A stretch of DNA of 64,000 bases from Escherichia coli. Lineage in GTDB: Bacteria; Pseudomonadota; Gammaproteobacteria; Enterobacterales; Enterobacteriaceae. Location: NCBI RefSeq assembly GCF_001677475.2, contig NZ_CP015229.1, one strand, 5' to 3'. Of the stretch, positions 27,689-30,807 are shown one piece after another; positions within the stretch are counted from its first letter, which is position 1; every line of letters starts with the position of its first letter. Position numbers and translations under genes: made by a program. The notes under the pieces are model-generated. The model did no database searches, was not told where the DNA came from, and saw nothing but the letters and a program-made list of their open reading frames with translations.

Positions 27689-28826
27689 TCAGGCGTCACG
27701 CGGTAACCCTTTTTCAATCACCCGAACCAGACGCTGTTTTTTCGGCAATTGCACTTCGACTATGCACGCATTTCGCCTCTCGATTTGCTGCGCCATCGCC
27801 CACGCTATGTGCTCATCAAGAAGTGGGTGCTCACCTTTGCGACTCTCCAGCGCCGCCAGAATCGTTTCATCCCAGGGGGCATTGCCTAATGCCACGGCGA
27901 TATTACGCAGCCAGCGCAGGTGACCTATACGGCGAATCGCCGATCCTTCCGTGACTTTTAAAAACTTCTCTTCGCTCCAGGCGAATAACTCAATGAGTTC
28001 CGGTGCGTGTAGCGGCTTACGCGGGCTGAAATCGTCTTCTGTAGTGAGTTGCGAATAGCGATTCCACGGGCAGATAAGCTGGCAGTCATCGCAACCGTAA
28101 ATACGGTTTCCCATTAACGGTCGCAACTCTTCCGGGATCGCCCCTTCCAGTTCGATGGTGAGATAAGAGATACAGCGGCGAGCATCGACGGTATATGGCT
28201 CGACGATGGCACCGGTCGGGCAAATCGTCATACAGGCCACGCATTTACCGCATCCTTCCTCGACTGGTTGATCCACGGGCAGCGGAATATCGACCAGCAA
28301 TTCGCCTAAAAAGAAGAACGAACCGGCCTCGCGATTGAGGATAAGTGAGTGCTTACCTGTCCAGCCGAGCCCAGCTTTTTCAGCTAACGGGCGCTCGAGA
28401 ATAGGCGCAGAATCGACAAACGGTCTAAAATTCAGCGAAACACAATGTTGCTGAATCATCTCGCCCAGCTTTTTGAGTCGGTTGCGCAGAAGCTTGTGAT
28501 AGTCACGGCCCAGCGCATAACGGCTAACATAGCCGAGTTTGGGGTTTTTCAGCGTGCTGGCAAATGCGGCGTTAGCAGGAAGGTAATTCATCCGCACGCT
28601 GATCACGCGCAGCGTACCGGGCAATAACTCATGGGGGCGAGCGCGCAGCATACCGTGACGCGCCATCCAGTCCATTTCGCCGTGGTATTGTTTGTCCAGC
28701 CATGCTTGCAGTTTTGGCTCGGACTCGCTGAGATCGGTATCGGTAATACCTACCTGCTGAAAGCCCAGTTCCAGCCCCCACTGTTTAATTTTTTGCGCTA
28801 ACTGATTGAGATCGAGGGGCTCTGAC

Positions 28827-28828
<2 letters not shown>
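27689..28828 (-). CDS. queG: Epoxyqueuosine reductase QueG
   Basis: ORF 27689..28936; start trimmed to [18 protein letters not shown] (379 aa); 4Fe-4S ferredoxin Cys motifs. Confidence 0.88.

Positions 28829-30807
<1,979 letters not shown>

Follow-up and report, generated by a model that had tools for sequence, protein, structure and literature searches.

How two divergent genes are expressed when no DNA is left between them is the question raised by queG and nnr (yjeF) of Escherichia coli. We analyzed a 64,000-nt stretch of contig NZ_CP015229.1 (hereafter the window, to which all positions refer unless a genome coordinate is given) in which these genes stand head-to-head. The overlap of the two genes is already known from the reference annotation, and the overlap of their transcripts from at least four genome-wide studies (Lybecker, Conway, the p19 study and ExcludonFinder). 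Our analysis adds comparative proof of the start codons, matches each published 5' end to a conserved −10 element within the coding sequence of the partner gene and corrects a TTG that had been taken for an ATG. Gene starts were judged by species comparison, while transcript ends and double-stranded RNA (dsRNA) were taken from published K-12 data and matched to conserved elements.

The queG–nnr locus and its start codons

The gene order at the locus is orn, three tRNA-Gly(GCC) genes, yjeV and queG (minus strand), followed by nnr, tsaE, amiB and mutL (plus strand). The interval 28500–29200 was matched in 5425 of 5426 complete E. coli genomes at 90–99.6% identity, and the features annotated beneath it were queG and nnr. 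K-12 MG1655 was collinear with the window over 28360–28900 (541 alignment columns without indels, 5 of them mismatches). The two overlapping ORFs both encode real proteins and have orthologues across 80 species; QueG matched the Pfam domains QueG_DUF1730 and Fer4_16, and Nnr matched YjeF_N and Carb_kinase, all well above the cut-off. The identity of TsaE was also confirmed with Pfam. nnr is the first gene of the nnr-tsaE-amiB-mutL-miaA-hfq... operon, which has 14 genes and 8 promoters and is the most complex described for E. coli (Conway 2014).

Several other features were observed nearby. nnr shares a co-directional overlap of 29 nt with tsaE (30346–30374, plus strand) and is thus overlapped at both ends. 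The 3' end of queG has a convergent 18-nt overlap with yjeV, a gene of 17 codons (27653–27706, plus strand) annotated both in K-12 and by PGAP. In ExcludonFinder, yjeV-queG is entered under convergent excludons, and yjeV-queG-nnr is given as a "noncontiguous operon" (PMC12288877). A YrlA (Y RNA-like) Rfam match at 27258–27396 (plus strand) spans tRNA-Gly genes 2 and 3 and was below threshold (40.3 bits vs a gathering score of 69); the tRNA-like module of the YrlA model is its most likely cause. Between tRNA-Gly(GCC) genes 1 and 2, the window carries a 121-nt insertion at 27110–27230, making the spacer 157 nt vs 36 nt in K-12; strain GMF065 has the same insertion. Its core (AATCCTTGGGAGCTTACAAAAGTAAGTGACTAAGGTGAGTGAAGGCAGCCAAGGCA) is one that we take to resemble an ERIC/IRU repeat.

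At the junction, the window reads GAGGGGCTCTGACATGACGGACC, with C28826, A28827, T28828 and G28829. An earlier note on this DNA had claimed that the ATGs of queG and nnr share two nucleotides in CATG. Direct reading bears this out, and annotation agrees: in K-12 MG1655, queG is placed at 4392928..4394067 on the minus strand and nnr at 4394066..4395613 on the plus strand, an identical 2-nt overlap, and the PGAP annotation of the closest strain has the same one. The note had also put the first ATG of the nnr frame at 28806, but positions 28806–28808 read TTG, and no ATG precedes that of CATG in the frame. This TTG is the first start-capable codon of the open nnr frame and directly follows the TGA at 28803–28805. 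A third in-frame candidate that the note did not mention is ATG 28842–28844 (MKKNP...). The extent of the overlap does depend on which start is chosen, as had been pointed out; conservation and Shine-Dalgarno (SD) energies now place that choice on the CATG pair.

To compare starts between species, we used queG loci fetched from 80 species and located nnr in them by tblastn. nnr immediately adjoined queG in 34 of 37 Enterobacterales loci, and 33 of these 34 had the exact 2-nt CATG overlap with residue 1 of Nnr on the CATG. These loci span the Enterobacteriaceae, Erwiniaceae, Yersiniaceae, Hafniaceae and Budviciaceae as well as other families. The QueG N-terminus, MSEPLDL, was conserved from residue 1 across the Enterobacterales; in the window, the protein read from the start ATG at 28828..28826 begins (M)SEPLDLNQLAQK. 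queG has no alternative in-frame start before codon 52, and its transcript, as mapped, does not extend to the next upstream ATG at 28936. Only one of the three nnr candidates has a good SD, with duplex energies to the 16S 3' end of −7.2 kcal/mol for ATG 28827, −3.2 for ATG 28842 and +1.3 for TTG 28806. Across species, the SD of ATG 28827 reads GAGGGG, GAGAGG or GAGGAG. Third-position entropy was low over codons 1–9 of queG, where synonymous sites are unusually conserved, and nnr codons 2–4 (ACGGACCAT) were almost invariant, synonymous sites included. The TRAINSPOTTER supplement holds no entry for nnr or queG.

Were Nnr to start at ATG 28842, the two coding sequences would lie 13 nt apart and the CATG would be a coincidence of annotation. 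This codon is in frame, 15 nt downstream of ATG 28827, and the YjeF_N domain starts only at residue 40, so the first residues of Nnr are not needed for the fold. In one soil metagenome-assembled genome (MAG; L020), a 1-nt indel leaves the equivalent of ATG 28842 as the sole usable start. However, this codon is GTG, TTG, CTG, AAG or GAG in other genera, whereas the CATG frame is open in all, and its SD is the weaker of the two. Furthermore, the printed sequences of Yersinia, Serratia and Rahnella contain no ATG, GTG or TTG between the CATG and the conserved S-L-P-H motif. We consider this start very unlikely and rejected it as the main start of nnr; L020 is the one case in which it is used. In that MAG, the indel falls after nnr codon 4 (~2486–2502 of the locus) and breaks the CATG frame, leaving a 14-nt spacer, and it represents either a genuine shift of the start or an assembly error.

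A start at TTG 28806 would instead give a head-to-head overlap of 23 nt. TTG is retained in 18 of the 33 species with the CATG overlap and, as noted above, is the first start-capable codon of its frame, but its conservation is explained by queG codons Asn8 and Leu7. No SD accompanies it, the frame upstream of the ATG is stopped within 1–5 codons in five loci (L007, L018, L019, L022 and L039), and an in-frame upstream start codon is absent from 12 of the 33 species. This candidate was rejected as well, and we give it almost no credence. With the CATG pair conserved, the alternatives unconserved or blocked and a good SD only at ATG 28827, the annotated CATG pair is predicted from this comparison to be the start codons actually used. 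The possibility that nnr initiates at another codon, on which the earlier note had made the overlap depend, is not borne out by these loci, L020 apart.

Table 1. Coordinates of features at the queG–nnr junction in the window
Feature	Position	Strand	Basis and remarks
queG CDS (epoxyqueuosine reductase, 379 aa)	27689..28828	−	ORF list, K-12 and PGAP annotation, Pfam; start ATG 28828..28826
nnr (yjeF) CDS, 515 aa	28827..30374	+	Annotation, Pfam, tblastn; start ATG 28827–28829
CATG, in which the start codons share 2 nt (A28827, T28828)	28826..28829	both	Direct reading of the sequence
nnr Shine-Dalgarno GAGGGG	28814..28819	+	7-nt spacer to ATG 28827; reverse complement of queG Pro4-Leu5 (CCC CTC)
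nnr-operon promoter core (candidate)	28422..28434	+	Inside queG codons 132–136; −10 TAAAAT at 28426–28431
nnr-operon transcription start (approximate)	28438..28439	+	Conway et al. promoter 4391701; inside queG codon 130
queG promoter (candidate), extended −10 TGgTATACT (minus-strand reading)	28860..28868	−	Inside nnr codons 12–14 (S-I-P)
queG transcription start (approximate)	28852..28855	−	End of the 413-nt Conway overlap (4392114 = window 28852); nnr codon 9
Region transcribed on both strands, 413 nt	28439..28852	both	Source of RNase III-cleaved dsRNA

Candidate promoters and leaders within the partner genes

The earlier note had argued that the promoter and ribosome-binding site of each gene must fall within the coding sequence of its partner. 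Published data uphold this: the 5' ends fall 388 nt into queG and 24 nt into nnr, −10 elements are found at both, and the nnr SD is within queG codons. Published coordinates were converted by subtracting 4363262 from the U00096.2 position, and the conversion was checked with small-RNA sequences and the collinear K-12 alignment; for example, the small RNA CAUGACGGACCAUACAAUGAAG at 4392088–4392109 corresponds to 28826–28847. The published transcript ends derive from models of RNA-seq coverage and are accurate to a few nucleotides only.

For the nnr operon, Conway et al. placed the plus-strand promoter at U00096.2 4391701 and the terminator at 4408049 (Table S1, PMC7373196). The resulting 5' leader is 388 nt long and is antisense to queG codons 1–130. 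At 7–8 nt before this published 5' end, queG codons 133–135 contain TAAAAT. It lies within the 13-nt sequence GGTCTAAAATTCA (28422–28434), which is the longest invariant run in the 1140-nt queG coding sequence among 21 Enterobacteriaceae; only 10% of the third positions of queG are invariant in the same set. The codon for Arg135 is the rare AGA in all 21 Enterobacteriaceae and CGN in other families, and the other Enterobacterales families have CGAAAAT-like sequences in place of TAAAAT. Because TAAAAT and AGA are restricted to the Enterobacteriaceae, the nnr promoter of other families may lie elsewhere.

No recognizable −35 or TG motif accompanies TAAAAT. In vitro, yjeF-yjeE-amiB-mutL are preferentially transcribed by Eσ70 (ROMA table), which fits a σ70-type promoter upstream of nnr. 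A σS preference of these genes, tied to the C just upstream of the −10, was considered and rejected, as the corresponding rows sit in the ROMA table of Eσ70-preferred genes. A generic scan of 28300–29400 found no promoter or terminator; the rule used for promoters needs a −35, which both promoters lack. Candidate promoters closer to the nnr ATG (TTTAAT at 28784–28789 and TGTGATAGT at ~28495–28503) were weak, their synonymous sites were unconserved and neither fits the published 5' end. A possible GGGG/CCCC hairpin in the start-codon region is not conserved between species and was also dropped. An Rfam scan of 26800–29300 matched only the three tRNA-Gly genes and the sub-threshold YrlA model, with no known RNA element in the nnr leader.

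An alternative source of nnr mRNA is read-through from glyVXY-yjeV across all of queG, which would make the locus a true noncontiguous operon, the class that ExcludonFinder assigns to it. We regard this as improbable as the main route of nnr transcription. The Conway et al. promoter falls at window ~28439, the three dsRNA data sets described below end at 28455–28497 without covering all of queG, and the invariant −10 block is located exactly at the Conway promoter position.

On the opposite strand, the candidate queG −10 sits 6–8 nt before the published 5' end at ~28852. Nearly every Enterobacterales locus had a TGnTAnnnT motif at a constant distance (−40) from the queG ATG. Of 78 gammaproteobacterial loci, 68 had the motif somewhere in the 90 nt preceding queG, with a chance expectation estimated at ~0.08 per locus. 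TGgTATACT has the features of a σ70 extended −10 promoter, for which a −35 is dispensable, and is predicted to act as one. Transcription of queG from a distant upstream promoter, which would have undone the arrangement described in the earlier note, disagrees with the published 5' end at ~28852. The resulting leader is ~24–27 nt long, U-rich and antisense to nnr codons 1–9. It has no SD (duplex energy only −2.2 kcal/mol) and is unstructured (minimum free energy −3.0 kcal/mol for 60 nt).

The queG leader also contains an out-of-frame AUG 10 nt upstream of the queG AUG (28836–28838, minus strand), which is the reverse complement of the CAT codon for nnr His4. Among 34 Enterobacterales loci, 29 have ATG at this position and another 3 have GTG or TTG; an upstream ORF of 8–48 codons begins here and overlaps the queG start, and the surrounding nnr codons 2–4 are the almost invariant ones noted above. 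Six Vibrio loci (L051, L057, L061, L063, L064 and L070), in which nnr is not adjacent, have no extended −10 and share a repeated, GATC-rich TAAGATCCGTTAAGATCC located 20–60 nt upstream of queG.

Antisense transcription and its possible consequences

Conway et al. reported a divergent overlap of 413 nt, from 4391701 to 4392114, and dsRNA has been recovered from within it in three data sets: MS-212 of Lybecker et al. (4391717–4392100, window 28455–28838) and the p19-captured clusters E-284 (4391759–4392107, window 28497–28845) and S-361 (4391754–4392109, window 28492–28847) (PMC7373196). In both p19 clusters, sense reads are about as numerous as antisense reads, and S-361 ranks in the top 20 coding clusters of stationary phase (PMC7373196). 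In vivo, the queG and nnr RNAs form a duplex that RNase III cuts into pieces of ~21 nt, and small RNAs from the locus cover the nnr SD and both start codons (PMC7373196). The 2025 ExcludonFinder study also includes queG-nnr among the 16 divergent excludons that recur in 50% or more of 58 MG1655 transcriptomes (PMC12288877). According to these K-12 data, the locus has two features of a divergent excludon, namely opposite-strand neighbors with 5'-overlapping transcripts, and RNAs that pair in vivo and are processed by RNase III.

To account for these observations, we propose that queG and nnr are two real, conserved genes on opposite strands whose ATGs overlap by two bases in CATG. With no intergenic DNA, every expression signal of either gene would be written inside its partner. 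The SD of nnr is provided by the Pro4-Leu5 codons of queG, and its operon promoter would be TAAAAT in queG codons 133–135, ~388 nt upstream; the extended −10 in nnr codons 12–14 would give queG an SD-less leader of ~25 nt that is antisense to nnr codons 1–9. Because these signals are embedded, the two mRNAs are complementary over ~413 nt, both translation-initiation regions included, and in vivo they pair and undergo cleavage by RNase III. As transcription of either unit passes through the promoter of the other, and as each ribosome-binding region is complementary to the other mRNA, the two units should antagonize each other. We infer that this could occur by polymerase collision or promoter occlusion, by cleavage of dsRNA and by masking of each ribosome-binding site, and mutual antagonism of this kind would make queG-nnr a divergent "excludon". 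We hold the structural part of this explanation with high confidence and consider the explanation as a whole, its regulatory step included as an expectation, to be probably correct.

Whether the antagonism matters to the cell is a separate matter, and physiologically meaningful reciprocal regulation of queG and the nnr operon is suggested here only tentatively. Its main rival, which we rate at close to even, accepts the overlap and the embedded promoters as real but gives them no part in regulation. The nnr start would have shifted into the last free bases, and the compact arrangement would then have been frozen because any change damages two genes at once; the dsRNA would be tolerated noise that RNase III cleans up. 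Other gammaproteobacteria have the same divergent pair separated by short spacers instead of overlapping, so the genes can do without the overlap. Divergent 5'-end dsRNA is widespread in E. coli, accounting for 13 of the 20 top coding clusters (PMC7373196), and may be a tolerated by-product. Against a purely neutral history, 33 of the 34 adjacent pairs, drawn from several families, have retained the overlap, and strong conservation of synonymous sites is seen both near the start codons (ACGGACCAT) and in the −10 elements. Such conservation shows that the embedded signals are under selection; it does not show selection for antagonism. We know of no functional link between QueG and Nnr that would call for reciprocal control.

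A stronger form of reciprocal regulation can also be envisaged, in which the junction would be a conserved bidirectional switch. Here, firing of the two promoters would be mutually repressive: polymerases would collide, RNase III would cleave the 413-bp duplex and each mRNA would mask the ribosome-binding site of the other. The last step of queuosine tRNA modification would be tied inversely to the expression of the first genes of the operon. The out-of-frame AUG could add a translational layer. We think it unlikely that the junction works in this way.

Origin of the overlap and relation to other systems

Outside the Enterobacterales, queG and nnr are often still divergent neighbors, usually without overlap. 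The spacers there are mostly tens of bases and some are at least 100 nt, although these lengths are approximate as the match may begin a few codons into queG. The CATG overlap is also present in Tolumonas (L079). Within the Enterobacterales, nnr no longer adjoins queG in Photorhabdus, Xenorhabdus and Proteus, and in Pectobacterium/Brenneria it is displaced by ~146 nt (L029 and L033) or by more than 1 kb (L036). Next to queG in these last three loci (~position 2501) is a decayed remnant of the nnr 5' end that still carries the CATG, the extended −10 of queG and an SD-like GTAGGGG, which suggests that the remnant is kept for the expression of queG. Judged by this distribution, the overlap is an old, Enterobacterales-wide state derived from a tight divergent pair.

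Overlaps of this kind are rare. A survey of E. coli counted 663 overlapping adjacent gene pairs, of which 586 were co-oriented and only 2 divergent (PMC4161906). Like the minimal co-directional overlaps of 4 nt (ATGA) or 1 nt (start/stop), the size of the queG-nnr overlap is set by codon sequence, and CATG is the sole way for ATGs on opposite strands to share two bases. Unlike translationally coupled co-directional genes, queG and nnr are on different mRNAs, so that ribosomes cannot be handed from one to the other.

In architecture, the locus resembles the divergent excludons, a concept that comes from Listeria, in that opposite-strand neighbors have 5' antisense overlap of their transcripts and dsRNA processed by RNase III (PMC12288877). 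Classical excludons differ in pairing opposing functions with reciprocal expression, and it is by architecture that queG-nnr is likened to them. Overlap of the coding sequences themselves is unusual even on the list of 16 pairs, where several entries contain ORFs that are small or doubtful. As in rsd-nudC, asd-yhgN, rhlB-trxA and plsB-dgkA, the p19-captured duplexes of ~21 nt are confined to the stretch transcribed on both strands (PMC7373196). Those four pairs have an intergenic region and overlap partly in untranslated leaders, whereas the queG-nnr overlap is all coding and includes both start codons.

The nnr promoter is the outermost of the eight promoters of its operon and, like the internal ones of amiB-mutL-miaA-hfq-hflX, lies in coding sequence. 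According to work by Tsui and Winkler, the promoters of that superoperon are reportedly embedded in the coding sequence of upstream genes. Unlike these internal promoters, the nnr promoter lies in a gene on the opposite strand, where it constrains the synonymous sites of queG.

The queG-nnr pair is thus a clean and well-conserved example of the rarest kind of bacterial gene overlap. The coding DNA of each gene would carry signals for the opposite strand, with a ribosome-binding site in Pro-Leu codons and promoters in codons for Asn-Phe-Arg, where the rare AGA is fixed, and for Ser-Ile-Pro. The arrangement also has a practical side for genetic work in E. coli. A deletion or insertion in queG would remove the promoter and leader of nnr-tsaE, of which tsaE is essential, and changes at the 5' end of nnr would remove the promoter of queG. 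Because the signals are shared in this way, the phenotypes of queG or nnr mutants can be polar artefacts.
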